From positions 4,245 to 68,244 of IMG/VR virus record IMGVR_UViG_3300020428_001187: 64,000 bases of DNA; one strand, written 5' to 3'. Numbering within the stretch: the first letter of the stretch is position 1; every line of letters starts with the position of its first letter. Of this stretch, positions 2,802 to 60,305 are shown piece by piece. Source of the stretch: a virus. The translations under genes were made by a program, and so were the position numbers. The notes under the pieces are model-generated. The model was not told the DNA's origin. It saw only the letters and a program-made list of their open reading frames with translations, and ran no database searches.

Positions 2802-3348
2802 AATATTAGTAACAGGAAATCCTAACTATGAAGGTTTATGCAAAGGTATTTACGAAGCATACAATAACAATAGGGTAGAATTCATAGGACGTCATAATGG
2901 CTGGGATATGAATGACGCAGAAAAAGTTGCCAACCATGCGAAAGACTTTGATGTATTTGTAAACAGCTTGTATGGTCCAGATGGACAACAGAATAGAATA
3001 CTAGAAGAAGTTTATAAAAAGTTTGAAAGAGGACACATAATAAACATAAGCAGTACTAGTTCTTATTGGGAATCAGGTTATAGTCCTCAAAATTACATTG
3101 ACAATAAAACATTATTAGACGGGTTGAGTAAGAAAATGAGTAATGATAGTTGTTGGGGTAACAGCGAAATAAAAGTTAGTAATATAGCATTTGGACAATT
3201 AAGTTCACAGAGTCAAAAAGAAAGAAAAGACAATAGGAATAAGATTAGTTTACAACAAGCTGGACAGTTTGTTAAGTGGGTAATTGATAGTCCTACAGAT
3301 ATTAATATTCATTATATGGCAATGGATCCTATACAAAAAGATCAGTAA
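2794..3348 (+). CDS. Short SDR-like Rossmann oxidoreductase
   Basis: ILVTG, DVFVNS, IINISS, YxxxK (YIDNK). Confidence 0.75.
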   Translation: MSRILVTGNPNYEGLCKGIYEAYNNNRVEFIGRHNGWDMNDAEKVANHAKDFDVFVNSLYGPDGQQNRILEEVYKKFERGHIINISSTSSYWESGYSPQNYIDNKTLLDGLSKKMSNDSCWGNSEIKVSNIAFGQLSSQSQKERKDNRNKISLQQAGQFVKWVIDSPTDINIHYMAMDPIQKDQ

Positions 3349-6808: not shown

Positions 6809-7244
6809 AAGAACCTCCAAATGCAGATTTTAAATCTTTTTCTATCTTGGTGTTAATCTCTTCAGGGGAATAAATGCCTACGTTATCCCAATCAACTAGA
6901 TAAGTGTTATCTCCGTCAATCATTATATTACTTAATACCCAATCGTAGTGTGCATAAGGCAATGTTTGTTCAAGTGTCTCATGACAGAAATCGTGTATTC
7001 TTTTTATAAACTGAGGAGTGTGTGCGAATGTATTTGCAGGAGTGCCTGGCACAATATGATAGTCTATGTACATACTGTTTTCTGTCTTGCCATAATCTAA
7101 AACATATCCAGGAATAACATCTTCAAGTATAGTTACGTGTTCTTCTAAACGATCCATATCTATATCATACCAAACTTTACGATATCTATCTTCAAGTTTA
7201 TAAACTTCTCTATTCTTTTCTAAATTTTTCTTAATCAAGTCCAT
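6789..7244 (-). CDS. Small APH/choline-kinase-like phosphotransferase
   Basis: HYDWVLSNIM (HxDxxxxN) and LVDWD motifs. Confidence 0.7.
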   Translation of the reverse strand: MDLIKKNLEKNREVYKLEDRYRKVWYDIDMDRLEEHVTILEDVIPGYVLDYGKTENSMYIDYHIVPGTPANTFAHTPQFIKRIHDFCHETLEQTLPYAHYDWVLSNIMIDGDNTYLVDWDNVGIYSPEEINTKIEKDLKSAFGGSYDPTSI

Positions 7245-8301
7245 AGGCTTTTGCTACCTCTGGTAGGTAATCTTTAATATGCATACCTCTCCAGTTATCT
7301 AATTTTGTTATATATTCTCTAAACTTATCTTGCCATTCAGGGTCAGCATCAACGTCAGCCCACTTGGCAATGTTTCCTGTAAACTTTTTCTTTAATTCGT
7401 CTGGTGCATTTTTTACGTGTAACCAATAAGGAGTTATTAGTAAGTTATCATAAATTTTAAAACGATTCTTTGCACAATACTCTCTTATTTCGTCATCGTA
7501 TATTGCATTTAATACACTGGTAGTTGGAGTAACATCTACAGTACAAAATTCTGCATACCTTTGTGTATTTTCTGATATAATATCCCAATCACTTCCGTGT
7601 CTAATATAATCTATTTTATGATCTACCGCATCAATACTCATACTCATAATTACTGTACGGAACTTTTTTAATATCTTTGATACTTTAGGGTTCCATAATG
7701 TTCCATTAGTATTAAATCTTACACATACAGTAGGGTCTAGTCTATCTAAAAAGCCAGGTAAGTGTTTAACCATCATTGGTTCTCCACCTGTTAAGTAAAC
7801 TTCTTTCATATCAGGTAAGTTTTCAAAGTGTTTTAATGTTTCCTCAGTAACCCAATTAAAGTTAGGCTCATCTAGTAAAGGCATATGAAGTGGTTGTACT
7901 CCTGCTTTCTGCATAGCAATAGCCTCTTCGGCTAAACTACTACTAGATAAATGGAAACAACTAATACATTTTAAGTTACAACTATTACCAAATCGAAGAT
8001 CCCAATGCGAAAGTCCTGGGCCAAAGTGATTTCTAACGTATCTAGTACCATCTTCTTTAACTTTAGTACGCATACTCTCTAAACCTTTTTCTTCTGCTTC
8101 TTGACATTTAATACAAGCATCAGGCCATTCGTCACGATCTAATTGTTCACGTACACCTTTATGGAAATCACTATCGTGCCATTGTTGTGGTGTATGAGTG
8201 TATATGGTTTCTTTGTTATCTTTTTCAAAGCTAGTACAACATAAACGATATTGACCGTCTGATCTTGTACAAATTTGATGTTCTAAATACTTACATTTCA
8301 C
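7231..8301 (-). CDS. Radical SAM protein with N-terminal twitch-like domain
   Basis: N-terminal C...CC...CIKC; CNLKCISC; LTGGEP; NTNGT. Confidence 0.9.
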   Translation of the reverse strand: MKCKYLEHQICTRSDGQYRLCCTSFEKDNKETIYTHTPQQWHDSDFHKGVREQLDRDEWPDACIKCQEAEEKGLESMRTKVKEDGTRYVRNHFGPGLSHWDLRFGNSCNLKCISCFHLSSSSLAEEAIAMQKAGVQPLHMPLLDEPNFNWVTEETLKHFENLPDMKEVYLTGGEPMMVKHLPGFLDRLDPTVCVRFNTNGTLWNPKVSKILKKFRTVIMSMSIDAVDHKIDYIRHGSDWDIISENTQRYAEFCTVDVTPTTSVLNAIYDDEIREYCAKNRFKIYDNLLITPYWLHVKNAPDELKKKFTGNIAKWADVDADPEWQDKFREYITKLDNWRGMHIKDYLPEVAKAYGLD

Positions 8302-9286
8302 CGCAGGTTACCTCACATATTTTAAATCTGTTTTCACTAGGAGTTGTTAGAACATCACTATCTAATATATGTTCTAAAGAATTGTTATTAATGTTAAGCC
8401 AGTTCATATCTGTTACATCTTTTGCGTATATGCTATTAGCATCTTTGGGATATCTTTCAGCTTCTAAATAACAACAAGGAAATACTTCTCCTACATGACT
8501 AATTTGTATCTTCTTTTTCTTTTGCCACTTACAAGTAATATGTCCTTTGTCAAATCCTTCTTTTAATAATCCTTTTACACGATCTACATTATCTAAATGT
8601 TCTTTGTTATATTTAATTGTTCGTGCATCGTCTTTTTTACTTGCCTTAAATTTTTCTATAGCTTCACCTACCACACTATCTATTGCACTAAAGGTATAGC
8701 CACCATTAATATCAAACTTACCGAAGCCCATGGCCTTGCTTAATTGTTCTGCGTCTTTGAGTTGATGTGCATTATGTTCAAATACTATCATACGCCAACG
8801 TGCAAGTCCACCTGCGTCTATAAAACTCTTTGCATTTTCCATAACCTTATGCCATTGTACATTTCTTCTATACAAATGATTAGTATCTTCCAATCCATCT
8901 ATGCTAAAAACTACATGAGTTGGAAAAGGAAAGTCTTTTAAACACTCTGCCAGTTCCGCAAAAAACTTAGGTCCATTCATTCCACCATTGGTATGTATAT
9001 GTATCTCTGGTTTGTTATATTGTTTTAAATAATTTAAACACTCAAAGATATAAGGATTACGTAACGGGTCTCCATAAGACCCATTGAATATAATTTTGTT
9101 AATGTTTTCCAATACTTTTTCAGTAAAAAGGTTCTTCCAAGTAGCAGGTTTCATGTGTTCAAGAGGCATACTAGGATTAACTTGTACTCCACCTATGTTT
9201 CTTGCACAGTTTCCGCACATCGCATTACAATGGCTCGTAAAGTCTACTGTCACCGTATCTATGTCTTTTAATTTCAAGAATGGCAT
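8291..9286 (-). CDS. Radical SAM protein with C-terminal SPASM/twitch
   Basis: CNAMCGNC, GSYGDP, HTNGG, FSIDG, C-terminal PCC...CxxxC; start reassigned to ATG 9286. Confidence 0.9.
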   Translation of the reverse strand: MPFLKLKDIDTVTVDFTSHCNAMCGNCARNIGGVQVNPSMPLEHMKPATWKNLFTEKVLENINKIIFNGSYGDPLRNPYIFECLNYLKQYNKPEIHIHTNGGMNGPKFFAELAECLKDFPFPTHVVFSIDGLEDTNHLYRRNVQWHKVMENAKSFIDAGGLARWRMIVFEHNAHQLKDAEQLSKAMGFGKFDINGGYTFSAIDSVVGEAIEKFKASKKDDARTIKYNKEHLDNVDRVKGLLKEGFDKGHITCKWQKKKKIQISHVGEVFPCCYLEAERYPKDANSIYAKDVTDMNWLNINNNSLEHILDSDVLTTPSENRFKICEVTCGEM

Positions 9287-9290
9287 ACTG

Positions 9291-9298
9291 TATTTAAC
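9291..9298 (-). promoter_or_regulatory. T4-type late promoter (GTTAAATA), 4 nt before ATG
   Basis: TAAATA core directly upstream of the rSAM start; divergent partner at 9331. Confidence 0.55.
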
Positions 9299-9330
9299 GT
9301 CATAAACAGAGTATTTAATGGGGTTGTGGC

Positions 9331-9338
9331 AATAAATA
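9331..9338 (+). promoter_or_regulatory. T4-type late promoter (AATAAATA), leaderless arrangement
   Basis: AATAAATA-TGTGT-ATG(9344), no SD. Confidence 0.65.
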
Positions 9339-9343
9339 TGTGT

Positions 9344-10039
9344 ATGCAAGAACTACACCAATTTCATGATACAAATGGTATAATAAAGACTCAAAAATAT
9401 CCAGAACAGTTCGATCCAAAGTGGATTGTAACGGAAAGTGGATGGCCTTATTTTCGTCTAAGTGCTTTAGATAACCAACCTTGGAAGGGTATGTACCATG
9501 AAGCGGAAAACTTAATAGATTCTTTTCATGAACACAGAGAAGAATACGGAAAAGGGTGGCGTAGTTTAACACTACACGGATTAAATGAAGATACACAGAG
9601 CCTTGACAGCTATGGAGATAGACAAGACTCTATCAAACAGTTAGATTGGACCTGGGTAGCTGATAAATGTCCTGAAACTAAAAAGTTTTTAACTGATGTT
9701 TGGCCAGCAGAGTATCTAAACCGTGTGCGTTTCATGTTGCTTGAACCAGGTGGATATATATTACCACATCAAGACAGAGATGATTCAGAAAAACGTTTAA
9801 GTGTTTGCAATATTAGTTTAAACAATCCAGAAGGTTGTGATTTTGTTTTTAAAGATCATGGTAAAGTTCCTTTTGAAGATCAAGGTAGTGCGTTCTTAAT
9901 GGATATTAGTAACGTTCATAGTGTATGGAATAGAAGTGATAAGCCACGCATACATATGATTATACATTATGAGTTAGGAAGACGTATTAGAGATTTCTTT
10001 TATGTGTTAAGACAAAGTTATTTCACCAATAGGGGTTAA
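9344..10039 (+). CDS. AspH-like 2OG/Fe(II) oxygenase
   Basis: RVRFMLLEPGGYILPHQD, HSVWN, RIH. Confidence 0.85.
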   Translation: MQELHQFHDTNGIIKTQKYPEQFDPKWIVTESGWPYFRLSALDNQPWKGMYHEAENLIDSFHEHREEYGKGWRSLTLHGLNEDTQSLDSYGDRQDSIKQLDWTWVADKCPETKKFLTDVWPAEYLNRVRFMLLEPGGYILPHQDRDDSEKRLSVCNISLNNPEGCDFVFKDHGKVPFEDQGSAFLMDISNVHSVWNRSDKPRIHMIIHYELGRRIRDFFYVLRQSYFTNRG

Positions 10040-18435: not shown

Positions 18436-18443
18436 TATTTATA
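18436..18443 (-). promoter_or_regulatory. T4 late promoter TATAAATA
   Basis: Exact T4 gp55 consensus upstream of the fibre gene, followed by AGGAG SD. Confidence 0.8.
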
Positions 18444-25878: not shown

Positions 25879-26775
25879 TTAAGTGCCTATTGCATTTCCG
25901 AATAGATAAACGTGTACTCTTGCCGCCACATTATATCCTCGTTGAAAAGCCAGTTTAGCAACGTCTCCGGCTGTTGCAGTTTGCTCTTCTTCTCTGGCTC
26001 CTACAGGCATAACCCATACAGGCCAATCTACACCTTCTGCTCTAAATTTTTCTATAGCAGAATCCATTTCGTCCCATTGTCTTTGCTCAGAGCCTACAAC
26101 AAATTTTAATTGTCCTGCTTTAGAAACTTGTCTGTATTCTCCAACTACTTCTGGAATAATTGCTTTTTTAGATTCTTCACCTGATACTGTAAACAGTTTA
26201 GGACTACAACTAAAGAATACTTCTTGATCAATTCCTGTAGCCCATTCTTTAAAAGGCTCTTTTAACTTTTGTGTACCGTTAGTTTCAAAAGTCATCGACT
26301 CGGGTAAATTACCTTGTTTTAATAATTCTTCATATATACCAACACTTGCTAACTGTCCTGTAACCATCAAAGGCTCACCACCAGTGAAACATAAGTGTTG
26401 TCTTTGTTTACTCATAGGGTGTAAGAACTTACCTTCTGGGTTCGACTCTGTCTTTAGTATATCAACAATCTTATTTGCTAACACACTAGGAACTTCCTGT
26501 CCCATTAGATGTTTATATTTCTTTGCCCAAGTATAAGAACTATCACAACCTTTTTCCCACACAGGCAAGTCTTCAACTCTTTTTACCTGACTAACGTCAT
26601 AATCCAAAAACGGCAAATCGTATGTTTCTGGATTTGTAGGATCTATCTGTCCAAAGCCACTACATTGTAGATTGCATAGAAAGAAACGTATCCAAGCAGT
26701 AGGCACACCTGTATAGTGTCCTTCACCTTGTATGGAATGAAATATCTCACTGTAATATACTTTTTTCTCTGCCAT
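25879..26775 (-). CDS. queE: 7-carboxy-7-deazaguanine synthase (radical SAM)
   Basis: EIFHSIQGEG..TGVP...IRF..CNLQC, GCDS, TGGEP, ETNGT, SPKL, RVH. Confidence 0.9.
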   Translation of the reverse strand: MAEKKVYYSEIFHSIQGEGHYTGVPTAWIRFFLCNLQCSGFGQIDPTNPETYDLPFLDYDVSQVKRVEDLPVWEKGCDSSYTWAKKYKHLMGQEVPSVLANKIVDILKTESNPEGKFLHPMSKQRQHLCFTGGEPLMVTGQLASVGIYEELLKQGNLPESMTFETNGTQKLKEPFKEWATGIDQEVFFSCSPKLFTVSGEESKKAIIPEVVGEYRQVSKAGQLKFVVGSEQRQWDEMDSAIEKFRAEGVDWPVWVMPVGAREEEQTATAGDVAKLAFQRGYNVAARVHVYLFGNAIGT

Positions 26776-45823: not shown

Positions 45824-45860
45824 AGAACTCCTCGTTATGTTAATTTATAATGTATTTATG

Positions 45861-46304
45861 CTAGGCTTGGATTGCCTTGCCTTTTTGTAGGGCAACGACG
45901 AAATTTCTGTAACCTGTTTTGCTATCAAGCATATTCTTACCATCTGACCATTTAGTACCGTCAAATGTCCAAGTAACTTTGCCATCACTATATGCTGATC
46001 CAGGTTTTACGTCTTCTTGTCTTGGTAGTTTTTGTGCAGGCTCCGGAGTAGGCGCCGGTGCTTTTGTATTCTTTTCTGGTGCTTTAGCATTATCTTTGCT
46101 ACTAGAACTGGAAGGTTTGTCCTTGCCAAGTCCGACTAAATTACGTAGTCTATCACCACCTGTTGGTTTCTGTATGTTTGATAACTTATTATCACCGCCG
46201 AATGTTTTGACCAGCTTATCAGAAAAGTCAGTACCATAGTCCGCAACGCCTTTATAAACGCCTTTTGGATCTGGTTTTTCTGGAAGGAAGTCTTTGGCTC
46301 TCAT
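45861..46304 (-). CDS. Putative internal head protein
   Basis: N-terminus MRAKDFLPE resembles a capsid-targeting peptide. Confidence 0.5.
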   Translation of the reverse strand: MRAKDFLPEKPDPKGVYKGVADYGTDFSDKLVKTFGGDNKLSNIQKPTGGDRLRNLVGLGKDKPSSSSSKDNAKAPEKNTKAPAPTPEPAQKLPRQEDVKPGSAYSDGKVTWTFDGTKWSDGKNMLDSKTGYRNFVVALQKGKAIQA

Positions 46305-46308
46305 TGAA

Positions 46309-47331
46309 CTACATCTTTACGCAGTTATCAACAGTCTTGCCACCCTTTTTCTTAGTACCCATACGTTTGTAACCTTTCCAGCATACTTTGCCGTCAACGC
46401 CTTTTTGTTTTTCGTATACATACTCGCCTTGTTCTTTTGCAAGTTTATCTGCTAGGGACTCTTTATAACCGTCTTTCTTTTTAGCAATAGCAATAGCCGC
46501 CTGTTGTTTAGGATTCTTTGCTTTGCCTTCACTTACTGGATCACAACCACAGTCGTCATCACATTTACTATGACTTTCGTGTGTGTCACAACCACAGTTT
46601 GCACTTTCACTTACTTCTTCGAACTTTTGTTCGTAGTCCATATTGTGATATACTGCACCCATATAGTCTGCGGCTTTAGTAATTTTAGATTGTACCCAAC
46701 CCTCTAAGCCTTCTTGCTCAGATACATTCTTTAACATCTCATGCATCTTGATTGAGTATTTTGCAATTTTGTATAGCTGAGCACGTGCCATTTGCACTTC
46801 GTGATCTTGCTCGACCTTGCTGGCCATATCCGCTAAATTTTCAACTAATTCTTTATCTTTGTTCATTGTAAGTTCCTTACTATTATTTAGCCGTTTCATT
46901 GGTTGACCGAATAGTCCATGGCTCTTGTTATCTAGTGCGTTATCTGTTGGTTTTTGTGTCTTAGGCTTCTTTTTGCTGTTTGCTATGTGTGGATTAGCCA
47001 CTGTTGCTATATTACCGGCACTTGTTGCACCAGGTGTAGCAGTTTCATCTACTTTAGGATCGTTGCAATTACAATGCGGACAAGTTGGTTTACATTCACA
47101 GTCTTCACGTTTTACATCTGCTCCACAACACTTGGGCGAACAATGTGTGTCTTTTTCAGATTCATTAATATCGTATGCATCTTTTCCCTTGTGCTTGTCT
47201 TTGCGTGGAATATCTTTAGTTTTGTCACCATGGCTACCTGCGGCTCCACTTTTACGTAAGCTCTGCATAGCCTGGAAATTAGGATCTCTTGGCTTGTTAA
47301 CTTTAGGTTTTTTAACTTCTCTTATACGCAT
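46309..47331 (-). CDS. Modular putative internal head (poly)protein
   Basis: Basic and Cys-rich modules separated by INE/VDE/LVE/VSE/VYE; C-terminal CWKGY...NCVK. Confidence 0.6.
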   Translation of the reverse strand: MRIREVKKPKVNKPRDPNFQAMQSLRKSGAAGSHGDKTKDIPRKDKHKGKDAYDINESEKDTHCSPKCCGADVKREDCECKPTCPHCNCNDPKVDETATPGATSAGNIATVANPHIANSKKKPKTQKPTDNALDNKSHGLFGQPMKRLNNSKELTMNKDKELVENLADMASKVEQDHEVQMARAQLYKIAKYSIKMHEMLKNVSEQEGLEGWVQSKITKAADYMGAVYHNMDYEQKFEEVSESANCGCDTHESHSKCDDDCGCDPVSEGKAKNPKQQAAIAIAKKKDGYKESLADKLAKEQGEYVYEKQKGVDGKVCWKGYKRMGTKKKGGKTVDNCVKM

Positions 47332-47336
47332 AGCAG

Positions 47337-47344
47337 TATTTATC
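47337..47344 (-). promoter_or_regulatory. Late promoter GATAAATA, leaderless arrangement
   Basis: GATAAATA-CTGCT-ATG(47331). Confidence 0.65.
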
Positions 47345-49295
47345 TTTTCATAAGTTGCATGATCTCTTTTAAACTTCCATTGATCATGTGTACTCTAGCT
47401 TCTTTTTGTCCACGTAAACGTAGTGAATCGTATCTATGATGTCCGTTAATGATATAACCATCTCTATCAACTAGTATAGGAGAGTATTTCTTATCGCCTG
47501 TGCGTTGTAATGCTTTACCTAGTTTAGCCCAGCTACGATCACGTTGTACGGGCTTTAGCTTGTCTAATGGTGTTTTACCCTTACGTGCAATAAACTTATC
47601 TACATCTTTGCTCTTAACTTGTGGAGGTTCTTTGCCATCTGTTGGTTCTGGGTCAAAGTTATGATCCTGATATCCTGATACATTACCAACTTGATATCCT
47701 AAACGTTTTAAGTTAGCAATCATATGTTTAGCTTCTTTATCTCCTCCAAAGAAGTTCAGCATAATATCTTGATCGCCCATGTTAGCATCATCTGGTTCAG
47801 TTGTTGCTATGTTGGCCATGTTACGTCCTAGTTTCATAAAGTCGTAATCAGTAGCATCTGAATCTACTGAATAACTGTTTTTAGGAAATGGTATAAGATC
47901 GCCTTCTTTTGCCATCTTGGTTGCTGTTGCATACATAACCGCATCAGCATCTTTACCGTAACGTTTTTTAAAGTCCTTTGAATTTTTCTTCATACCTTTT
48001 ACGAAACGTTCCTTGTCTTTCTCTTCGCCTTTTGTCAATTCTCTCTCCGTAGCTGGTTGTTCAAAATATTGTTTTAAATTTTTAGCAGTTCTTTCAAACT
48101 TATGATCTTTATGTTTAAATCCTACACCACCTGATGCTTCCCACTTACTAACGTTCTGACCAAAGTCATCAATTAGTATGTTTGGAGTGCCATCTGAATT
48201 TTTAGCATACTTGCTTTTCTGTGCAGTAATAATTACTTCTTTTGGTGGAAATGCTTTTAGGTTCTTTTCAACCCATTCTTTTTTACTAGGTTCTACTCTA
48301 GGGTCATCAGCCATTGGTGCTGAAAGTATAGAGTACTCACCTTTAATATCTTTAATAATAGATAGTAAGTTATCTGCATTAGAAGTAGGTTTTAGATTAA
48401 TCCAAAAGTCTTTTGTATCTCTAATTTTTTGTAATGCGGCATCTACGTCTTTGATTTCTTTCCAATCGCTAACACCCATCATCTTAGTCCACGGACCAAA
48501 GAAGTCTACAAGAACTCCGTCCATGTCAACGTATATCTTACTTGCACTTGACAATTCTGTTTCGTCTTCGTTTGCTTTGTTATTGCCCTTGTTCTTAAAG
48601 TCAAATCTGTTGTTAGGTCCTTTTCCTGCTTTATGTACTAAACCCATTGGTTTAATAGTTTGAGGCATAATCTTCCATTCGTTCCATATTTCTTTCCTTG
48701 ACTCTACCAACCCATCTGGTACATCAAATTGCCATACTTTGCCTTTACCAGTTGCTTTCATTACAGCAGTAAGTCTTGTATTACCGCCTACTAGTTCTAA
48801 ATGCCCGTCACTGTAACTTGCAACAATAGGTAATTCAATTGAACCTTTTTCTAGTTGTTTTAATGCTCTTGCTTGTTTATCTTTATCAAGGTTATCAAAG
48901 TCTTTAACATTAACAGCATCAGTATTACTCATCTTTTGAACTGTTTTAGTATTGTATTCAACTACTTTGCCTTTATTTACAAGCTCAATCCATTTATCCT
49001 TACCTATCTTTTTAAATTCTTCATAACGTGTTGCTTCGTCCCACTCGCTATCAAGATTAGGCTTTGTATATGTTATATCCTTTCTAGACTCTGCCATGCC
49101 CAAATTAAATAATGTATTTGGGTCACTGTTTTTATGAGCCTTCTTGTGCATATTATATACTGGAACTCCTTTTTTGTCAACCTTTAATCCTAGTTTGGCC
49201 GCTTGTTTCTTGATTGCGTCAGGACCTACGTCGTGTGTAGTGTTAACACCCGGTACAATTAATCCAACACCTTCGTAGAGTTGACGTAGTTTCAT
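47340..49295 (-). CDS. Modular protein: ParB/Srx-like + HAD 5'(3')-nucleotidase-like + ParB/Srx-like
   Basis: LPIV...GGNTRL; YVDMDGVLVDF...LIDD; PILVDRDGYIINGHHR; N-terminus MKLRQLYE. Confidence 0.7.
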   Translation of the reverse strand: MKLRQLYEGVGLIVPGVNTTHDVGPDAIKKQAAKLGLKVDKKGVPVYNMHKKAHKNSDPNTLFNLGMAESRKDITYTKPNLDSEWDEATRYEEFKKIGKDKWIELVNKGKVVEYNTKTVQKMSNTDAVNVKDFDNLDKDKQARALKQLEKGSIELPIVASYSDGHLELVGGNTRLTAVMKATGKGKVWQFDVPDGLVESRKEIWNEWKIMPQTIKPMGLVHKAGKGPNNRFDFKNKGNNKANEDETELSSASKIYVDMDGVLVDFFGPWTKMMGVSDWKEIKDVDAALQKIRDTKDFWINLKPTSNADNLLSIIKDIKGEYSILSAPMADDPRVEPSKKEWVEKNLKAFPPKEVIITAQKSKYAKNSDGTPNILIDDFGQNVSKWEASGGVGFKHKDHKFERTAKNLKQYFEQPATERELTKGEEKDKERFVKGMKKNSKDFKKRYGKDADAVMYATATKMAKEGDLIPFPKNSYSVDSDATDYDFMKLGRNMANIATTEPDDANMGDQDIMLNFFGGDKEAKHMIANLKRLGYQVGNVSGYQDHNFDPEPTDGKEPPQVKSKDVDKFIARKGKTPLDKLKPVQRDRSWAKLGKALQRTGDKKYSPILVDRDGYIINGHHRYDSLRLRGQKEARVHMINGSLKEIMQLMKR

Positions 49296-49513
49296 TTCTT
49301 TTTTCTTCCTCTAAAACTAGGAACACCGGTCATATAAGGTTTACCAAACCAAAGTTTAAACCAATCCTTATCTCCAGGCTTTAGCCCTAACTTCTTTTCT
49401 TTTTTTCTAATGGCAGTTGCAGTGATACTAGGATTCTCGTCTACTTTGTATTCAGTATATCCTGTAAACTCATTAATACCTGCTAGTTTCTGTAATCTTT
49501 TTATATCGTCCAT
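49292..49513 (-). CDS. Small putative internal head protein
   Basis: MDDIKRLQKLAGINE; PG...WF..WF. Confidence 0.55.
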   Translation of the reverse strand: MDDIKRLQKLAGINEFTGYTEYKVDENPSITATAIRKKEKKLGLKPGDKDWFKLWFGKPYMTGVPSFRGRKKK

Positions 49514-50541
49514 TACTTCTTCTTGCCACTTTTCATATTAGCACACCAGTGATACATCTTTGCTTTTTCACCTGATGCCTTCTTTGCTCTTGCTCTTAGA
49601 TCAGTTACTGATCCGTTGCAACTTGCACCAGACTTTTTAACACGACCTGGTCTGCTTTTACCTTTTTTTTTACCGTCTGCAAAGTTTTCATCTTGCTTGT
49701 ACGTAAATTTAAAGTTTAAATTCTTAAAAAGATTTACAGTTGTCTTTGCACTTCTTAAAGCCTTTTGCATAAGCTCTTGTTCGTCTTCTGATCTGCCATC
49801 ATAAAAACGTAAAAATTTGTTTGCTTCAGATGGTTCAATATAAACTTTACCACCTACACTTATTTCATTTGAATCTGCGTTCCAACTTAATGGAAAAGGT
49901 TTGCCGTCACTTCTACTTGCTATGTTATTAAGTACATCTAGTTTAGGCTTCTGTTGTTTAACTACTAGCTCGTCTAGGTTTTCTTGTACACCCATACCAG
50001 CCTTAACTTTAGTAAACATCATCTGTGCTAGTTTCTCATCTCCAGCAACACCTTGTTTGAAAGTTTCAAAATCACCTTCAGCGGCCGCGGCTTTCATTTT
50101 ACTTGCACTCATTCCTTCTGCACCTTCGGCATCAGGATCACGTTGACCTGCACTTACAATATTAATGCTGTCAAATGTATAATCTTTTCCGTTGTAATCA
50201 TTTAAAAGTTTTGTAAAGCTATCTACTCTATCACTACCAGCTACATAAATTATATCTGTGTAACCTTTTGCTTCTAAACTTTTCATAGCATCGATAATAG
50301 TTCTTACTTTATTATCACCAATAGCAATACCACTAAAACTTTTTTGTGCAAAGAATACTTTTTCTGCAAATGACAAAGGATCTGTCTTAGGTTTTTGCGT
50401 ATGTGTTAAGAATAGAAAAGGTTCGCCTTGTTGACTTTTTATTACGTCAACTAATTTTGCGTGTCCTATAGTAGGTGGGTTCATTCGCCCAAAGGCAAAT
50501 ACGGCAGTCTTAGAAGCTTCGAATAGCTCTCGCAGAAACAC
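49513..50541 (-). CDS. Cytidylyltransferase-like (HxGH) nucleotidyltransferase with extra modules
   Basis: FGRMNPPTIGH, AGSDR, GMSASKM; N-terminus MFLRELFE; basic C-terminal module. Confidence 0.8.
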   Translation of the reverse strand: MFLRELFEASKTAVFAFGRMNPPTIGHAKLVDVIKSQQGEPFLFLTHTQKPKTDPLSFAEKVFFAQKSFSGIAIGDNKVRTIIDAMKSLEAKGYTDIIYVAGSDRVDSFTKLLNDYNGKDYTFDSINIVSAGQRDPDAEGAEGMSASKMKAAAAEGDFETFKQGVAGDEKLAQMMFTKVKAGMGVQENLDELVVKQQKPKLDVLNNIASRSDGKPFPLSWNADSNEISVGGKVYIEPSEANKFLRFYDGRSEDEQELMQKALRSAKTTVNLFKNLNFKFTYKQDENFADGKKKGKSRPGRVKKSGASCNGSVTDLRARAKKASGEKAKMYHWCANMKSGKKK

Positions 50542-50879
50542 TAGTACTCTCCATCTCTAATCATCTCCATTTCGTCACCATATATCTTTTCGATGATCTC
50601 TGTTTTTTCATCGTCACTTAAAAGTTCTTCTGGTCTTTTTGGGATATCATACTTTGAGCAATAATGTTGACAGCCTTTCTCAATCATTGGCCCCATGTGT
50701 TGCATTTGATCAATTGGCTCGCCTTTTTTAAGTTTATCCTGCATAGTTGCCATTGTTGGATAATACATTTTACGATAGAAGATAGGATCGTTTCTCATGT
50801 GTTGACATAAGTCTTCAACAACATTGAATCCTAAATCTTGTTCGTATTTGTCTTCAGAAAATTCAACTAGTTTTACCAT
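50541..50879 (-). CDS. Putative internal head protein
   Basis: N-terminus MVKLVEFSE. Confidence 0.5.
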   Translation of the reverse strand: MVKLVEFSEDKYEQDLGFNVVEDLCQHMRNDPIFYRKMYYPTMATMQDKLKKGEPIDQMQHMGPMIEKGCQHYCSKYDIPKRPEELLSDDEKTEIIEKIYGDEMEMIRDGEY

Positions 50880-51247
50880 TTACGACAACTCCAATATCTT
50901 GCTTTTGTTCTTGGCCCTGGATTATCGCAGTTGTGTCTTGCACGAAAACTTCTGCGTCTTGCAGGGTTTGATTTTTTGATTCTCATATTAGGATCACCAA
51001 AGTTTACTTTTTTAACATTTTTAGTCTTTGGATCTTTGACGTATACTTTAAACTTCTTAACATCGCCTTGCATTGGCTTTCCAAGTTTTACTTTACGTCC
51101 TTGGTATTCAGCTTCGTCTACAATCTCGTCTTCGTTAAACCACATATCACCATATGCAATATAAAAATCATCACCGTCGTAAGTTTCTTCAACCCAGCGG
51201 TTTTGTTCCTCTGTTTCTTTTAAATAATCAGTAAATGTTTTAGACAT
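50873..51247 (-). CDS. Phage protein with basic C-terminal domain (putative head protein)
   Basis: MSKTFTDYLKE; RRRSFRARHNC...ARYWSCRKW; late promoter at 51269-51276. Confidence 0.65.
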   Translation of the reverse strand: MSKTFTDYLKETEEQNRWVEETYDGDDFYIAYGDMWFNEDEIVDEAEYQGRKVKLGKPMQGDVKKFKVYVKDPKTKNVKKVNFGDPNMRIKKSNPARRRSFRARHNCDNPGPRTKARYWSCRKW

Positions 51248-51287
51248 AGAATACTCCTATACTAAGAGTATTTATCACAGTTTAAAG

Positions 51288-51560
51288 CTAGACGGAAATT
51301 TCGATATCGAAGTTATTGTGGCCTAAATCAAACAATTTGTGTGCTAAACGTTCAGCTATGACGCTTGATTCTTCATCGTTTAGCTGTTTATGTAGCTCTA
51401 CAGCAAGTACAGAGCCACCCTCTATAGTATCATATGTTTCGTAGTTAGTTTCTTCTTCTAATAAGGCCTCATCAGCACACTCTAGCACAGTATCAACTAG
51501 ATAATCGTCTACTTCACTTAAATCTTTGTTTTCCCATACTATATTAATAAAATGTTTCAT
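51288..51560 (-). CDS. Acidic hypothetical protein
   Basis: AAGG SD; N-terminus MKHFINIVWE. Confidence 0.55.
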   Translation of the reverse strand: MKHFINIVWENKDLSEVDDYLVDTVLECADEALLEEETNYETYDTIEGGSVLAVELHKQLNDEESSVIAERLAHKLFDLGHNNFDIEISV

Positions 51561-51569
51561 GATTATACC

Positions 51570-51908
51570 TTAATGATTCAGCAATATGCTTTGTACAGTT
51601 CCGCTTGTAAATGTTACTACTGCTCTAACCCATACAAAGTTACCTGTAAAATTGTAAAAATAAGAACCTTCTGTTCCCATGGATTCAGTACCATCAATGT
51701 CAAAGTAGTCCGCTTCTGCAGGATCAGTTGCAAGTGTTCCTTGCATTTTTATAGTACCGTTAAAGCCTGCAACGTTGTATTGTACTGTATGAAATCCATC
51801 TGCTCTGCCATAGTAACCGTCACCTTTAAACTTGGTACCTGTTACTGTAGAAGAAGTAGAGTCTCCTGCGTGTACTTGGTTTGACATTATTGTTTCTGAA
51901 CTGGACAT
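51570..51908 (-). CDS. Small beta-rich virion protein
   Basis: NFTGNFVWVRA; GATAAATA-ATAAT-ATG late promoter (51914-51921). Confidence 0.55.
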   Translation of the reverse strand: MSSSETIMSNQVHAGDSTSSTVTGTKFKGDGYYGRADGFHTVQYNVAGFNGTIKMQGTLATDPAEADYFDIDGTESMGTEGSYFYNFTGNFVWVRAVVTFTSGTVQSILLNH

Positions 51909-51912
51909 ATTA

Positions 51913-52566
51913 TTATTTATCCGAATATACTAGCCTATCGATCCTCATGATATTGTTATGTAAGAACAATCTAACTATGGTAAGTATCTTGTCATCTTTT
52001 ACATACAAGTACTTGCCCTTCAAATCTCTACCCTGCTGTAAATCACGTATAAGCCTATCACCTGCTTTTACCTTGCTAGTGTTTTTTACACAATAATCTG
52101 CAAAGTTCTTATCAGCAGTTCCATTAAGGTTAATTTTGTAATTGTACTCGGAAGGCTTGTCTAAGTATATTGTATTCTTTTCTAGTGTATCTACTGTTGG
52201 TTCCCATAACCAAGGAACATCATTTATTTTTCTTGAAATCTTCTTCAACCAATCGATATCATTGGAGTATATGCCTAGTCTTGATCCTTCACATCTAAGC
52301 ATAAAGTCTACATCATCTTGGAAAGCATTTACAAGTATCTTAAGATCATCAAAGTCTTCAACTTTTATCTCTTGTTCTTTCTGTGACCACCTATGCATTT
52401 TAAAAGTTAGTGGTTCTCCTTGTGTGGACTTACGTTGTAATTGATCTATAATAACTCTAGCATTGTCAAGACGTTTGTTTCTAAAGATATGTGTGCCAGA
52501 ATTGTACACACCTAGCTTATAAGCATACTTGTCCCAGAAGAGTTTATTAGTTTGTCTTTTGATCAA
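51913..52566 (-). CDS. Hypothetical protein
   Basis: ORF overlapping the clpA end. Confidence 0.6.
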   Translation of the reverse strand: MIKRQTNKLFWDKYAYKLGVYNSGTHIFRNKRLDNARVIIDQLQRKSTQGEPLTFKMHRWSQKEQEIKVEDFDDLKILVNAFQDDVDFMLRCEGSRLGIYSNDIDWLKKISRKINDVPWLWEPTVDTLEKNTIYLDKPSEYNYKINLNGTADKNFADYCVKNTSKVKAGDRLIRDLQQGRDLKGKYLYVKDDKILTIVRLFLHNNIMRIDRLVYSDK

Positions 52567-54805
52567 TTTTCTCTCGCTTCTTAACTTTGGTATTTAATAC
52601 AAATTCTTTTTCGTTAATATCTATATTTAAAGTACCGCCATCTTTTAAGTCACCAAACAAGAGTTTTTTGGATAAAGGTGTCTTGATGTCTCTATCAATT
52701 ACACGTTGTAAAGGTCTTGCACCCATCTTAGCATCAAAGCCTTTGTCAACTAGTAAGTCAATAGCACTATCAGATACAGTAGTTGTAACACCTTTCTCTG
52801 TAAGCATATTTTTTAGTTCTAGTAAGAATTTACCAACAATCTTGATCATAGTATTCTTTTCAAGTTTGTTAAACGTCATTGTTCCGTCTAATCTATTCCT
52901 AAATTCAGGTGCAAAGAATTTTTTAAGTTCTTTATCTTCATATTCTTTTTCCATTTCACCAAAGCCAATAGCATTAGTTTCAGCTTCTTGTGAACCTAAG
53001 TTAGTAGTTAGGATTAAAACAATATTTCTACAGTCGGCTGTCTTACCATTAGATCCTGTAACAAATCCATTGTCCATAATTTGTAGTAATAATGAACTTA
53101 CATCAGGATGTGACTTTTCTATTTCATCTAATAATAGTACACAGTTAGGATGTTCTTGTAATTTGGTAATTAACAATCCTGCATTTTCTTCAAAGCCAAC
53201 ATAGCCCGGAGGAGAACCAATTAGTTTTGATACAGAATGTTTCTCTTGGTATTCTGACATATCAAATCTAACAAGTTTTACACCAAGTTGTTTGGATAGT
53301 TGTCTAGCAGTTTCAGTTTTACCAACACCTGTTGGACCCATAAACACAAACGACCCAATTGGTTTGTTTTCTGCTTTAAGTCCTGCTTGAGCAACAAGTA
53401 TCTTATCAACTATTTGATCTACTGCTTTATCTTGACCGTATATTTCGCCTTTTAGATTCTTTTCTAAGTTAGCAAGGTTGCTTGATTCTTTTTCTTTAAC
53501 TGTTTCCTCTGGCAAGTTAACTGCTTTAGAAAGTTCAAACTGTATTTCTTCTTCAGTAATAACCTTTTCTGCCTTAGGATCTTTCAAATTAAATCTTGAA
53601 CAAGCACAATCAATCAAATCAATTGCTTTATCAGGAAGTTTCTTATCTGACTGATACTTAACACTTAATTTAATTGCACTTTCAATAGCTTCTTCTGTAA
53701 TAGTTGTCTTATGAAACTCTTCGTAATACTTTTTAATACCTAACAAGATATCTTTTGTCATCTCTTTGCTAGGCTCGTCTACAGTTACTCTAGCAAATCT
53801 ACGCATCAATGCTCTATCTTTTTCAAAATACTTTCTATATTCTTCCCAAGTGGTTGATGCAACGACTTTAATATTACCTTTGGTTAATACAGGCTTTAAC
53901 ATATTAGCAAGATCGTTGGAACTTTGTCCACCACCTGCACCTGCACCATTCATCATATGTGCTTCATCAATAAACACGATAGTTTTACCACGTTTCTTAA
54001 GAGCGGCCATAACTAATTTAAAACGTTCTTCAAAGTCTCCTCTGTATTTAGAACCTGCTAACATTGATCCAATGTCTAAGTTGTAAACACTATACTCTTT
54101 TAGAAACTCTGGTACTGTTTTATTAACGATGTTCCAGGCAAGGCCTTCAGCAATAGCTGTTTTACCTACACCTGGATCACCTACTAGCAACACGTTATTC
54201 TTTGCACGTCTACCTAAGGCAAGTGCAATAGAATCTAATTCGTCTATTCGTCCTATAACAGGATCTATTTTTCCTTGATCAACTTCAGCATTAAGATTAG
54301 TTGTAAATGAACGTAAAGCTCTAGTAGCCATACCTGCCATTTCTTCATCTTCATAGTTGTCAGCCATCTCATTGTTAAGATAGTCAGCAAACTTATCCTT
54401 ATCAATGTTAGTTTTTGCAATATGATAGTATGACCAGCTTTTCTTTTCATTCATAATGCTTAAGAAAACATCTGAACAATCAATGTGGCTTCTACCACTA
54501 AACAATACTTGAGTAAATGCCCTATTCAACACTCTTTCTACTGCGTGTGTTTTCTTAGGCTTATACTTTTTAGCTACTGCCGGATCCATCTGAATTTTTT
54601 CAGTCTGGGTCTTTAAATAATTTTCAACATTCTTTTTAAGGAACTCTGGATCTGATCCATATCCTTCTATAATTTTAGCAAAGGACGACTCGCAAAGCAT
54701 AGCAAATAATAAATGCTCAAGGGTAACGTACTCATGTTGTAGCTTCTTAGCTACATCAACTGCTTTATCAAATACTAACTGTAACTGTTCGCTCGGTTCA
54801 ACCAT
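52547..54805 (-). CDS. clpA: ATP-dependent Clp protease ATPase subunit
   Basis: Clp N-domain (HEYVTLEHLL), GDPGVGKT, GPTGVGKT, IGF ClpP-docking loop, GARPL; no ClpB middle domain. Confidence 0.92.
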   Translation of the reverse strand: MVEPSEQLQLVFDKAVDVAKKLQHEYVTLEHLLFAMLCESSFAKIIEGYGSDPEFLKKNVENYLKTQTEKIQMDPAVAKKYKPKKTHAVERVLNRAFTQVLFSGRSHIDCSDVFLSIMNEKKSWSYYHIAKTNIDKDKFADYLNNEMADNYEDEEMAGMATRALRSFTTNLNAEVDQGKIDPVIGRIDELDSIALALGRRAKNNVLLVGDPGVGKTAIAEGLAWNIVNKTVPEFLKEYSVYNLDIGSMLAGSKYRGDFEERFKLVMAALKKRGKTIVFIDEAHMMNGAGAGGGQSSNDLANMLKPVLTKGNIKVVASTTWEEYRKYFEKDRALMRRFARVTVDEPSKEMTKDILLGIKKYYEEFHKTTITEEAIESAIKLSVKYQSDKKLPDKAIDLIDCACSRFNLKDPKAEKVITEEEIQFELSKAVNLPEETVKEKESSNLANLEKNLKGEIYGQDKAVDQIVDKILVAQAGLKAENKPIGSFVFMGPTGVGKTETARQLSKQLGVKLVRFDMSEYQEKHSVSKLIGSPPGYVGFEENAGLLITKLQEHPNCVLLLDEIEKSHPDVSSLLLQIMDNGFVTGSNGKTADCRNIVLILTTNLGSQEAETNAIGFGEMEKEYEDKELKKFFAPEFRNRLDGTMTFNKLEKNTMIKIVGKFLLELKNMLTEKGVTTTVSDSAIDLLVDKGFDAKMGARPLQRVIDRDIKTPLSKKLLFGDLKDGGTLNIDINEKEFVLNTKVKKREKIDQKTN

Positions 54806-55337
54806 ATAATTTTGTGTCCTTAACTTGTCTTGTAATCCGTTTCATTAATTTGTTCTGCTTCTTCTTTGCCATGTCTAATCTCAACTTGCTTACTCTGTCT
54901 ATGTAGTTGATTCCGTATAGATGATCATATTCATGACCAAAGATTCTTGCATTCCAACCTTGTAACTCTATTGTACACTCTTTTCCGCTAGAGTCAAGAC
55001 ACTCTGTTACCAATCCAACTGGTCTTTTAACTTTAAAGTACAATAAAGGAAAACTTAAACAACCTTCTTCGCCTTCTATCATCTCCTCACTTACCGCAGT
55101 AATTTTAGGATTGATAATTGCAAATGGTTTGCCGTCCTCGTAGTCTTTTAAACCTTCTGGTTTAATAATGAATATCTGTGAATCAAGTTCAACTTGATTA
55201 GCCGCTAATCCTACTCCTTGATTCTTGTCCATGATATCAATCATTTCAGATTCAATCTTTTTAGCGTCTTGTTTGTCAAAGTCAAAAGGTTTAACCTTTT
55301 TCTCTAACCAATCATTTGGGTGATATATCAATTTCAT
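54798..55337 (-). CDS. def: Peptide deformylase
   Basis: GVGLAANQ, EGCLS, HEYDH. Confidence 0.95.
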   Translation of the reverse strand: MKLIYHPNDWLEKKVKPFDFDKQDAKKIESEMIDIMDKNQGVGLAANQVELDSQIFIIKPEGLKDYEDGKPFAIINPKITAVSEEMIEGEEGCLSFPLLYFKVKRPVGLVTECLDSSGKECTIELQGWNARIFGHEYDHLYGINYIDRVSKLRLDMAKKKQNKLMKRITRQVKDTKLYG

Positions 55338-56178
55338 CTTTTATCTTTGCTAGTTTCTCTCTTGTTTGTTCATCATTAATCGTTGGCGTTATGCCTAATA
55401 CCTTAACAAATAAGTTTCCCGTTTGTCCTGATCTTTGATCTGGTAATCCTTGTCCGCTTATACTAAAAGTTGTGTTGGAGTTTGTGCCTGGTGGAACATT
55501 AACACTTAAGGTTCTTCCGTGTAATGTCTCTACTCTTATGTTTGTGCCTAATAACAAATCGAATACACTTACATTCCTTGTTATATATAAATTTATGCCT
55601 TCCACGTCATACTCGGGGTGCCTTTTGACTCTTACTTTAACCATTAAGTTACCTCTAGGCATATTAGGTACTTGATCACCACCCATTCCTGGATAACGTA
55701 TTGTATCTCCTGGGCGTACACCCTTTGGTAGTGTGATGTTTACTGTCTGTTGTTTGCCACTAGGTAATCTAAAATTGGCTATTAGTTCTTTGCCCTTTAT
55801 AATATCTTCAAGTTCGATATCAGCGGCTATTGTAATGTCTTGATTACGCATTTGTCTTTGCCTAAAAGGACTATTTGGCTGTGCAAATCCGTCGCCAAAG
55901 AATGTAGAAAAGATATCATTCATATCTCCGCCATTGAAATGGAAAGTTGTACCGTTTTGTGAGAAGCCTTGCTGTTGTGGATCAGTAGTTCCAAACTGAT
56001 CATACATCTGTCGCTTCTGTGGATCTTTTAATGCCGAGTAGGCTTCGTTTACTTCTTTGAATTTGGCTTCATCGCCACCTCTGTCAGGGTGGTGTTGCAT
56101 ACTTTGTTTCTTATATGCTTTCTTTAGTTCAGAGTCTGAAGCTGTTTTATCAACACCTAGTATATCGTAATAGTCCAT
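55312..56178 (-). CDS. DnaJ/CbpA-type co-chaperone (no Zn finger)
   Basis: J-domain HPD, G/F region, C-terminal domains. Confidence 0.92.
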   Translation of the reverse strand: MDYYDILGVDKTASDSELKKAYKKQSMQHHPDRGGDEAKFKEVNEAYSALKDPQKRQMYDQFGTTDPQQQGFSQNGTTFHFNGGDMNDIFSTFFGDGFAQPNSPFRQRQMRNQDITIAADIELEDIIKGKELIANFRLPSGKQQTVNITLPKGVRPGDTIRYPGMGGDQVPNMPRGNLMVKVRVKRHPEYDVEGINLYITRNVSVFDLLLGTNIRVETLHGRTLSVNVPPGTNSNTTFSISGQGLPDQRSGQTGNLFVKVLGITPTINDEQTREKLAKIKDEIDISPK

Positions 56179-57205: not shown

Positions 57206-57247
57206 ATAATATCCTTTGTTATATGTGTATTTATTAAAAAGAGGGGG

Positions 57248-60139: not shown

Positions 60140-60305
60140 TCGTCTCACCTATAGCTTATACACTTATTTATCCACTTTACTTTTATAACCACGCACTTTT
60201 GTTTCTGTCCCGACCAGGTAAATATTTGTGTAGAGACGCATTTTAGTTGTTTTCTATATAGCTAAGGTGTTCCTTTACGTGATTAACTCATAAAGGAGAT
60301 ACTTA

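Follow-up and report, generated by a model that had tools for sequence, protein, structure and literature searches.

This report concerns a stretch of 64,000 nucleotides ("the window"), positions 4,245 to 68,244 of IMG/VR virus record IMGVR_UViG_3300020428_001187, and within it a block of eight adjacent minus-strand open reading frames (ORFs) at 45861-51560. An earlier note on this DNA had proposed that the block encodes a cassette-like polyprotein system, in which cargo is addressed to the capsid, cut after glutamate by the head protease, and perhaps injected. That reading is supported by the shuffling of modules at Glu borders, by a leader found in 33 unrelated protein families, by a junction motif resembling that of the T4 gp21 protease, by protease, scaffold, and capsid genes in the same lineage, and by homologues in cyanophage virions. 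We put the probability at roughly 70% that the block is a genuine variant of T4 capsid targeting, built on polyproteins and apparently not described before. Enzymes and small basic peptides are probably loaded into the head of this phage; that they are packaged and cut there, and that they reach the host, is what we infer, and by analogy with the T4 internal proteins the cargo may be injected.

The eight ORFs, of 90, 124, 112, 342, 73, 651, 340, and 147 residues, abut or overlap from start to stop, and the ORF listing gives them and their N-termini exactly as the earlier note had quoted them. In the window taken alone, all 8 have a hydrophobic-x-E ending at residue 5-15 (among them LYE, LFE, FSE, LKE, VWE, LPE, and INE), and the longer pattern hydrophobic-x-x-hydrophobic-x-E occurs in 5/8 block ORFs versus 4/80 other ORFs (Fisher p = 1.6e-4). 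Because Glu is common, this window-only signal is suggestive but weak alone.

Relatives were collected by scanning IMG/VR with the 342-residue protein: 599 stretches matched, 593 were confirmed, and the best 80 were kept as related loci. The ORF counts that follow refer to these 80 loci plus the window (1811 ORFs, 1634 on the cargo strand and 177 on the opposite strand). A homologous ORF is readable in 78 of the 80 loci; nearly all of these begin M-[FLRK]-L-R-E-L-F-E-A-P, and the proteins range from 191 to 1228 residues with unrelated C-terminal parts. A strict leader pattern is found at 122 of the 1811 ORF starts versus 10 of 8473 internal Met positions. A relaxed pattern is found in 185 of the 1634 cargo-strand ORFs (170 with an 8-residue leader and 15 with a T4-type 10-residue leader) and in none of the 177 on the opposite strand. 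Grouped by the 60 residues after the leader, the leader-bearing ORFs form 33 unrelated families.

The consensus of the 8-residue form is M-K-[IVL]-x-[DE]-[LI]-x-E, followed by a small residue. Among the 29 family representatives with this form, L/I/F/V at position 6 and Glu at position 8 were set by the search pattern, and positions left free by it are still biased, with K at position 2 in 20/29 and D/E at position 5 in 25/29. One related contig of 138.7 kb and 138 ORFs (G004) holds only two leader ORFs, both of them in its cytidylyltransferase block.

In T4, the capsid-targeting sequence of internal protein IPIII is its first 10 residues, of which 4 and 7 target the protein while 8 and 10 direct its processing by gp21, whose motif is L/I-X-E (PMC9026906, as excerpted); the sequence string is quoted in PMC8442874. 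T4 positions 4, 7, 8, and 10 are matched by the 90- and 124-residue ORFs of the block and by ORF6, 13, 14, and 154 of cyanophage S-CREM2. Other T4 head proteins also carry hydrophobic-x-E within their first 6-10 residues, namely gp67 (MEGLIE), gp68 (MLLIPE), gp22 (MLKEQLIAE), and gp24 (MAKINELLRE). The dominant 8-residue form, two residues shorter than the T4 sequence, would be its equivalent.

The small proteins of the block are simply built (all features of the block are on the minus strand, and a slash marks a predicted cut). The 90-residue acidic protein (51288..51560) has a T4-type 10-residue leader, MKHFINIVWE/N, with an aromatic residue at position 4, hydrophobic residues at 7 and 8, and Glu at 10; its relatives conserve MKNFINIVWE. 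In the 124-residue protein (50873..51247), the leader MSKTFTDYLKE/ is followed by an acidic linker to VDE45/A and by a widespread small basic module at residues 46-124 (phrog_7595, residues 43-124). In 8 of the 27 listed phage records, the match to this C-terminal module starts exactly at residue 46, right after VDE45. The 112-residue protein (50541..50879) has the leader variant MVKLVEFSE/D, and its relatives begin MKLVEFDE or MKLNEVQE. The 73-residue basic protein (49292..49513) starts with a different, longer element ending in I-N-E, MDDIKRLQKLAGINE15/F, whose status as a leader is uncertain because the same element is found internally in relatives. The 147-residue Lys/Pro-rich protein (45861..46304) begins with the leader-like MRAKDFLPE9/K, gave only 7 alignments to related loci, and has no family match.

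The three long ORFs are assembled from several modules each. The 342-residue polyprotein (49513..50541), which has a GTG start, consists of the leader MFLRELFE/, an HxGH nucleotidyltransferase ("cytidylyltransferase") at residues 9-187, the sites VQE187/ and LDE191/, module B (192-285), QDE285/, and a basic Cys module C (286-342). The 651-residue polyprotein (47340..49295) continues from its leader MKLRQLYE8/ with a conserved low-confidence N-module (9-69), an alpha/beta domain (70-198), a small basic module (199-243), a 5'(3')-deoxyribonucleotidase (244-417), a helical module (418-464), a further module (465-556), and a ParB-like domain (557-651). The 340-residue polyprotein (46309..47331) is a string of small modules: a truncated leader variant, MRIRE5/ (MRLKDLVE in a relative), a basic module, INE57/, a Cys-rich module, VDE96/, a mimic of the capsid-protein N-arm, a helical module, VSE242/, a Cys module, VYE307/, and a basic CWKGY module. 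A tblastn search with the 340- and 651-residue proteins found only scattered modules among isolates.

Two of these modules deserve a separate remark. The CWKGY module (46312-46410; 33 residues, basic, with Cys) is 83-86% identical in DNA to Synechococcus phages Sf-CH3, Sf-CH11, and S-H9-1, far above the rest of the block, a difference that points to recent exchange or to strong constraint. After the leader of the 651-residue protein, residues 9-69 (49089-49271) read G-R-I-V-K-G-V-N-T-T-x-D-V-G ... A-A-K-[LF]-G, and the observation extends to the 73-residue ORF at 49292-49513. A comparable "K-L-G-L" stretch follows the leader in Syn9 gp184 and S-CREM2 ORF14, and it could be a second targeting element or a DNA-binding one.

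Module borders were taken as clusters of BLAST alignment starts and ends against the ORFs of the 80 related loci. The ten x-x-E borders given in the earlier note all lie within about 3 residues of such clusters: E69 (MAE/S), E198 (LVE/S), E243 (ANE/D), E417 (ATE/R), and E464 (AKE/G) in the 651-residue protein; E191 (LDE/L) and E285 (QDE/N) in the 342-residue protein; and E57 (INE/S), E96 (VDE/T), and E242 (VSE/S) in the 340-residue protein. Two additional Glu borders are E556 of the 651-residue protein and E307 of the 340-residue protein. The same note had asked whether modules are shuffled among relatives at these borders, and they are, with whole modules being swapped there. After the conserved end of the transferase (...GMGxxE/), for instance, the window has modules B and C, one locus (L001) has B only, another (L004) has B, one additional module, and then C, and the tails of still others are quite different. 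Module C (NFADGKKKG...) is preceded by KQDE, SIEE, HVDE, AYNE, and KANE in five different contexts, and in contig G011 it stands directly behind a leader (MRASEFITE/NFADG...). The helical module at 418-464 of the 651-residue protein is located behind the transferase in locus L047. As a side observation, some cytidylyltransferase polyproteins (L011:3892-5817 and L014:8001-9479) continue directly past the GMGxxE border with a long module of hydrophobic, membrane-like character, which is odd in a head-internal protein.

For a junction test, the 60 residues after each leader were traced as internal copies in other ORFs, which gave 209 instances, 157 unique 20-mers, and 101 non-redundant contexts. 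Glu stands at -1 in 54 of the 101 junctions (background 7.0%, p = 2.6e-35), and another 18 have Glu at +1, a one-residue alignment offset. I/V/L stands at -3 in 46 of 101 (I 19, V 18, L 9; A only 8), against a background of 19.7% (p = 3.8e-9). The same pipeline started from random internal positions returned Glu in 44/762 and I/V/L in 147/762. The motif at these junctions, [IVL]-x-E, is equal to the specificity that the excerpted text of PMC9026906 gives for T4 gp21, L/I-x-E. Positions -4 to -8 bear no likeness to the leader; since the junctions retain only the residues at -1 and -3 (P1 and P3), the determinants of the T4 protease, they are not fossil or decayed leaders.

One of the shuffled modules resembles part of the capsid protein. 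At 46993..47043, residues 97-113 of the 340-residue protein form a copy of the maturation site and N-arm of the major capsid protein, KVDE96/TATPGATSAGNIATVANP; written as KVDE96/TATPGATSAGNIATV, the mimic has 12-13 residues in common with the capsid protein. The gp23-type capsid protein of contig G004 reads YLSE41/SATAGATSAGNIAT (in a longer reading, ...YLSE41/SATAGATSAGNIATLN...), and E41 is kept in all 80 best capsid-protein homologues. It aligns with the E65 column of T4 gp23 (FLTE/AEIGG, E65/A66), where LLRE10/S of T4 gp24 aligns too. T4 gp23 matures by a cut after Glu65; its annotation in the T4 record states no more than cleavage by the gp21 protease. In cargo proteins, the motif E/TATAGATSAGNIA matches the capsid maturation site in 30 unique contexts (36 instances), with Glu before it in 30/30 and I/V/L/M at P3 in 27/30.

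The lineage also has the head genes that such a system would draw upon. Contig G004 holds, together with its cargo block, a portal gene, a Peptidase_S77/PF03420 protease (5.5e-27), a scaffold-like protein in which [LIV]xE occurs 26 times, and the gp23-type capsid protein. The same capsid protein is found in contigs G011 (186 kb) and G012 (135 kb) beside leader-bearing cargo, including MKIREIFE/TATAGATSSANIATV. A T4-type capsid gene and a cargo block therefore share one contig in three relatives, and in one of them the prohead protease is there as well.

Leader-like starts also occur in head-morphogenesis proteins of G004 (locus L087, 12117-12485, 14340-14966, and 14979-16067). MDILRALLE is the start of the scaffold-like protein and MMNYLRE that of the protease, and MILRELYY is contained in a small ORF located between the genes for portal and protease. 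This likeness of N-termini suggests one common code for core targeting and processing.

The domain searches agree with the modular picture for the larger pieces. The Pfam family NT5C matches residues 250-405 of the 651-residue protein (26.4 bits, cut-off 24.8), with phrog_2643 at 1.5e-24, and the top Foldseek matches of this protein are deoxyribonucleotidases. Its C-terminal ParB-like domain is recognized at PHROG level only (phrog_620, 9.7e-07; phrog_2859, 1.8e-07), the Pfam match to ParBc_2 being weak (E = 0.18). The HxGH nucleotidyltransferase, annotated as "cytidyltransferase," covers residues 3-195 of the 342-residue protein (phrog_3041, 1.9e-51), and its fold is similar to phosphopantetheine and nicotinic acid mononucleotide adenylyltransferases. 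Searches of Pfam and NCBIfam with whole proteins and cut modules gave NT5C alone above cut-off, a weak cytidylyltransferase match, a weak nicotinamide mononucleotide adenylyltransferase hint, and nothing for the small modules; a sequence search of solved structures with the 342-residue protein gave nothing meaningful. Residues 70-198 of the 651-residue protein were considered as a second ParB-like domain, and this assignment was dropped (BLASTP against the C-terminal domain, E = 0.85; no Pfam match).

AlphaFold2 models place most of the sites between folded domains. For the 651-residue protein (28-sequence alignment), the mean predicted local distance difference test score (pLDDT) is 73, and confident domains are separated by low-pLDDT stretches at 1-20, 47-72, 206-245, and 465-471. 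These contain E8, E69, E243, and E464, while E198 and E417 lie at domain ends and E556 in coil. The model of the 342-residue protein (mean pLDDT 85) has low confidence at 190-199 and 290-301, directly after E187/E191 and E285. In the models, then, the predicted cleavage sites fall in low-confidence inter-domain linkers.

Indirect experimental evidence comes from cyanophage virions. Homologues of the window transferase are present in 558 phage records, mostly of cyanophages; Syn9 gp184 starts MKKFSAFLSE. A "putative citidylyltransferase (T4-GC190)" was detected in purified S-SM1 virions (Sullivan et al. 2010, PMC3037559, as excerpted). The 52 proteins of the S-CREM2 virion include cytidylyltransferase ORF154, S-adenosylmethionine (SAM) hydrolase ORF6, kinase ORF14, and ORF12, 13, 15, 155, 156, and 160 (PMC10665884, Table 3). 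The N-termini in that phage are MKNFSSFLTE (ORF154), MKDFDSFLEE (ORF6), MKDLHSFLTE (ORF13), (V)KRFDAFLTE (ORF14), and MNFSEFNE (ORF15), so the cytidylyltransferase, SAM hydrolase, kinase, and ORF13 all start MK-x-[FL]-x-x-F-L-x-E. A six-frame scan of the whole S-CREM2 genome gave 8 matches to the motif, of which 6 coincide with annotated starts; five of these six proteins (ORF6, 13, 14, 15, and 154) were detected in the virion versus 47/213 of the other coding sequences (Fisher p = 0.0032).

This connection has apparently not been drawn before. The words "capsid targeting" occur 0 times in PMC10665884, and searches of open-access texts found no paper that connects such a sequence with either cyanophages or pelagiphages. 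The one paper found to contain "capsid targeting sequence" as well as "cyanophage" is PMC9026906, where cyanophages are confined to the reference list.

Taken together, we would picture the system as follows. Each block gene would start with a capsid-targeting propeptide, either of 8 residues or of the T4-type 10, which by analogy with the T4 internal proteins would attach the protein to the scaffolding core while the prohead assembles. The long genes would encode polyproteins of a nucleotidyltransferase, a 5'(3')-deoxyribonucleotidase, a ParB-like domain, many small basic Cys peptides, and a capsid N-arm mimic, with the modules connected by linkers ending in [IVL]-x-E. A T4 gp21-type prohead protease would then cut after each accessible Glu site, removing the leader and freeing the modules inside the head; we infer this dicing from the motif, the mimicry of the capsid site, and the positions of the linkers. 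The freed enzymes and basic peptides would remain with the DNA and, again by analogy, may enter the host. As the same mature product could be made from a gene with its own leader or from behind another module, genes could fuse, split, and swap modules freely, giving a cassette-like, fast-evolving cargo. Fused and split forms would yield identical mature products, so that the protease sites would act as evolutionary joints for module exchange.

A broader proposal is that a combinatorial cargo system operates in marine T4-related phages, among them a widespread jumbo lineage, uncultivated and with genomes of about 360 kb. In it, an 8-10 residue tag would load entire polyproteins, the protease would dice them at [IVL]-x-E, and nucleotide-metabolism enzymes, nuclease-like domains, and dozens of small basic peptides would be injected together with the DNA. 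We hold this slightly more probable than its opposite.

Several points weigh against reading the block as head cargo. It is located among replication and auxiliary genes, not head genes, and the T4-type late-promoter signature ATAAATA is not enriched at leader genes (17/185 versus 210/1626 others). The 8-residue leader departs from the T4 10-residue sequence, and its targeting role is putative. Neither a protease nor a capsid gene was found in the phage's own 68-kb record, which CheckV rates 19% complete, and a prohead protease was found in only 1 of the 10 related fragments searched (G004), all of them 17-41% complete. One comparative border, at residues 147-158 of the 340-residue protein, is without Glu, and several junctions have A, Q, K, or T at P3, among them ANE, ATE, AKE, and QDE of the window. 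Some modules are present in podoviruses, siphoviruses, and archaeal spindle viruses, all of which are without a T4-type head, and the modules themselves are therefore not head-specific. On the side of the proteomes, S-CREM2 ORF175 (55 residues) bears the motif and was not detected in the virion. The virion data were obtained from cyanophages, which are distantly related and have the 10-residue leader, and carry-over could account for low peptide counts such as the 3 of the S-CREM2 cytidylyltransferase.

A first alternative accepts true Glu-cut polyproteins and has them processed outside the head or by another Glu-specific protease, or has the pieces stay behind as DNA-condensing counter-ions or scaffold-like assembly factors that are not delivered. 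Many modules are small and strongly basic, as DNA counter-ions would be, and the mimic of the capsid N-arm might serve in assembly or as a decoy for the protease. T4 itself offers a precedent, its scaffold and core proteins also being diced at L/I-x-E with most fragments leaving the head (PMC9026906, as excerpted). The enzymatic modules (nucleotidase, nucleotidyltransferase, ParB-like domain), however, would make poor sense as counter-ions; the only known Glu-specific [LI]-x-E protease in such a context is the prohead protease, which is active inside the prohead; and T4 proteins with a capsid-targeting sequence are delivered into the host, according to the excerpted text of PMC9026906. We regard this alternative as unlikely.

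According to a second alternative, these are ordinary cytoplasmic multidomain fusions, neither cleaved nor packaged, with an N-terminal motif that serves translation initiation, a partner-binding helix, or recognition by a ClpA-like unfoldase. The location of the block suits this explanation, for it lies in a region of replication and auxiliary genes, with a ClpA-like ATPase and a peptide deformylase two genes away. Lys at position 2, the commonest residue there in the leader, is frequent in well-translated genes generally. Escherichia phage JP4, a Rak2-like coliphage, has the same enzyme as a 177-residue cytidylyltransferase (L179, 5995-6528) that starts at the enzyme fold, without any leader or extra modules; not all jumbo relatives, therefore, have the combination of tag and polyprotein. 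What a cytoplasmic role leaves unexplained is the Glu at borders (54/101 versus 44/762) with I/V/L at -3, the copying of the capsid cleavage site (30/30), and the presence in virions of motif-bearing cyanophage proteins (5/6). The residues after predicted cuts (G, A, K, S, T, D, and N) are, moreover, not classical ClpS N-degrons. We consider this explanation improbable, more so than the first. A leader of the kind found on ribosomally synthesized and post-translationally modified peptides, or a ClpA/ClpS degron, was likewise rejected, as the Glu pattern at junctions and the post-cut residues do not fit.

The last alternative, that the Glu-ending junctions are non-functional remnants of leaders left by gene fusion and that the leader is possibly conserved only as a recombination linker, can draw on modules existing both internally and stand-alone with a leader (so that fusion and fission do occur) and on stop-to-start overlaps that make fusion by small deletions easy, but is highly implausible, for a neutral remnant would decay evenly whereas the junctions retain P1 Glu and P3 I/V/L alone (nothing at -7, -6, and -4 corresponds to the leader's K at 2, [IVL] at 3, and D/E at 5), and the conservative variation of the leader (K/R, I/L/V, D/E) over 33 families points to selection on the peptide, not the DNA.

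Returning to head-packaged polyproteins as the preferred explanation, the closest known system is that of T4 IPI, IPII, IPIII, and Alt with the gp21 protease. As there, a short N-terminal propeptide ending hydrophobic-x-Glu is common to unrelated, fast-evolving proteins, and in the window lineage, contig G004 encodes a protease of gp21 type, a scaffold-like protein, and a gp23-type capsid protein with a homologous cut site. It differs from T4 in that most leaders have 8 residues and that polyproteins of up to 7 or more modules have internal cleavage linkers, whereas T4 internal proteins are cut once, beside the targeting sequence (PMC8442874). The predicted cargo of the window lineage also differs in including nucleotide-metabolism enzymes and a capsid N-arm mimic, with genes in the replication region.

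The inner-body and ejection proteins of phiKZ, 201phi2-1, and SPN3US, with their gp175/gp245-type proteases, are similar in that these are jumbo phages with many head-internal proteins that are cut after Glu, some at several sites, and ejected (PMC9026906, as excerpted). Their motif, according to the same excerpts, is S/A-X-E, whereas P3 in the window lineage is mostly I/V/L (46/101; in the mimic, I/V/L/M in 27/30), and the excerpts describe neither a common N-terminal address tag nor module-shuffled polyproteins. The window polymerase, furthermore, is nearest to those of Atu_ph07-like and Rak2-like jumbo phages and not to that of phiKZ.

The polyvalent proteins that Iyer et al. 2017 (PMC5512222, as excerpted) describe from phages and conjugative elements are likewise large, shuffled multidomain effectors with recurrent ParB-like domains, predicted to enter the host with the DNA, and some are processed before packaging. 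Such proteins have two to fifteen effector domains, and at least 7 modules are found in the 651-residue protein and 3 in the 342-residue protein. A Pfam search of the block for the polyvalent signature domains (zincin-like MPTase, ART, SNF2 helicase, DdrB-like ParB, etc.) found none besides the weak ParB-like match. In contrast to polyvalent proteins, predicted sites for the prohead protease lie between the window modules and a leader stands in front of them, and the working units would therefore be the pieces, not the whole protein. PMC5512222 has 0 mentions each of marine phages, cyanophages, and cytidylyltransferases.

Finally, the "non-structural" proteins of cyanophage virions (S-SM1 T4-GC190; S-CREM2 ORF6, 12-15, and 154) include a cytidylyltransferase homologous to that of the window and detected in the virions of two cyanophages; they differ in having a 10-residue leader, and their source papers draw no connection with capsid targeting. 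Within the open-access literature, three parts appear to be new: a tag of 8 residues, an architecture of polyproteins joined at protease sites, and a module that copies the site at which the capsid protein matures.

Should this hold true, tailed phages would have a first example of head cargo made as polyproteins, and the T4 capsid-targeting mechanism would extend far beyond coliphages. Phage-injected proteins are the first weapons in infection (anti-defence, host take-over) and are almost impossible to spot from sequence. Here a simple, testable rule, namely a tag of the form M-K-[IVL]-x-[DE]-[LI]-x-E or of T4 type combined with joints of the form [IVL]-x-E, would predict them from marine viromes, with a reach of at least 593 contigs that have relatives of one such gene. 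It would also account for the "non-structural" enzymes that recur in cyanophage virion proteomes. Protease sites would make gene fusion and fission neutral and thereby speed module exchange, and the leader is a possible packaging tag for marine phage engineering.

The source phage is an uncultivated marine jumbo phage, and the window, with a guanine-plus-cytosine content of about 35%, is 64 kb out of a 68,244-bp contig; a tRNA scan of the window found none. Among isolates, jumbo phages have the most similar polymerases: Sinorhizobium phage Phosso (50% identity), Agrobacterium phage Atu_ph07 (47%), and Rak2-like coliphages (43%). Contigs of relatives, 119-148 kb long and with a completeness rating of 33-41%, point to a genome size of roughly 360 kb.

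As to expression, the earlier note had called the block genes "late." The motif ATAAATA is depleted in the window (10 found versus 34 expected), and 9/10 copies precede the start of a minus-strand gene by 12-52 nt. Within the block it precedes only two ORFs, those of 124 residues (51269..51275, minus strand, at 28 nt) and 340 residues (47337..47343, minus strand, at 12 nt); another copy (51914-51920) precedes the gene just upstream of the block, and further examples in the window are at 18436-18442, 45853-45859, 57228-57234, and 60165-60171. In the 80 loci plus the window, 227/1811 genes have ATAAATA within 70 nt upstream. The T4 late promoter TATAAATA has 1 site in the window and none within the block. 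With promoter-like placement but no enrichment at leader genes, late expression is therefore plausible, unproven.

The neighbours of the block encode a T4-type DNA polymerase, an exonuclease, 2-oxoglutarate-Fe(II) oxygenases, a ClpA-like ATPase, and a peptide deformylase. Flanking it directly is a 112-residue ORF (51570..51908, minus strand) without a leader, which matches a phage "virion structural protein" family (phrog_14467, 1.8e-08; phrog_13657, 1.2e-13) and has its own ATAAATA at 51914-51920. Just upstream, 52547-56178 is a protein-quality-control cluster, unusual in a phage, with the ClpA-like AAA+ ATPase (phrog_4871, 1.7e-244) and the peptide deformylase. The N-terminus of a third protein in this cluster resembles what we take to be a J-domain. 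Elsewhere in the window, several ORFs at 3329-9349 have Cys-rich N-termini (MKCLAPWH..., MKCKYLEHQIC...) and by appearance look like radical-SAM/SPASM-type enzymes, and a QueE-like radical SAM protein is encoded at 25879-26775.

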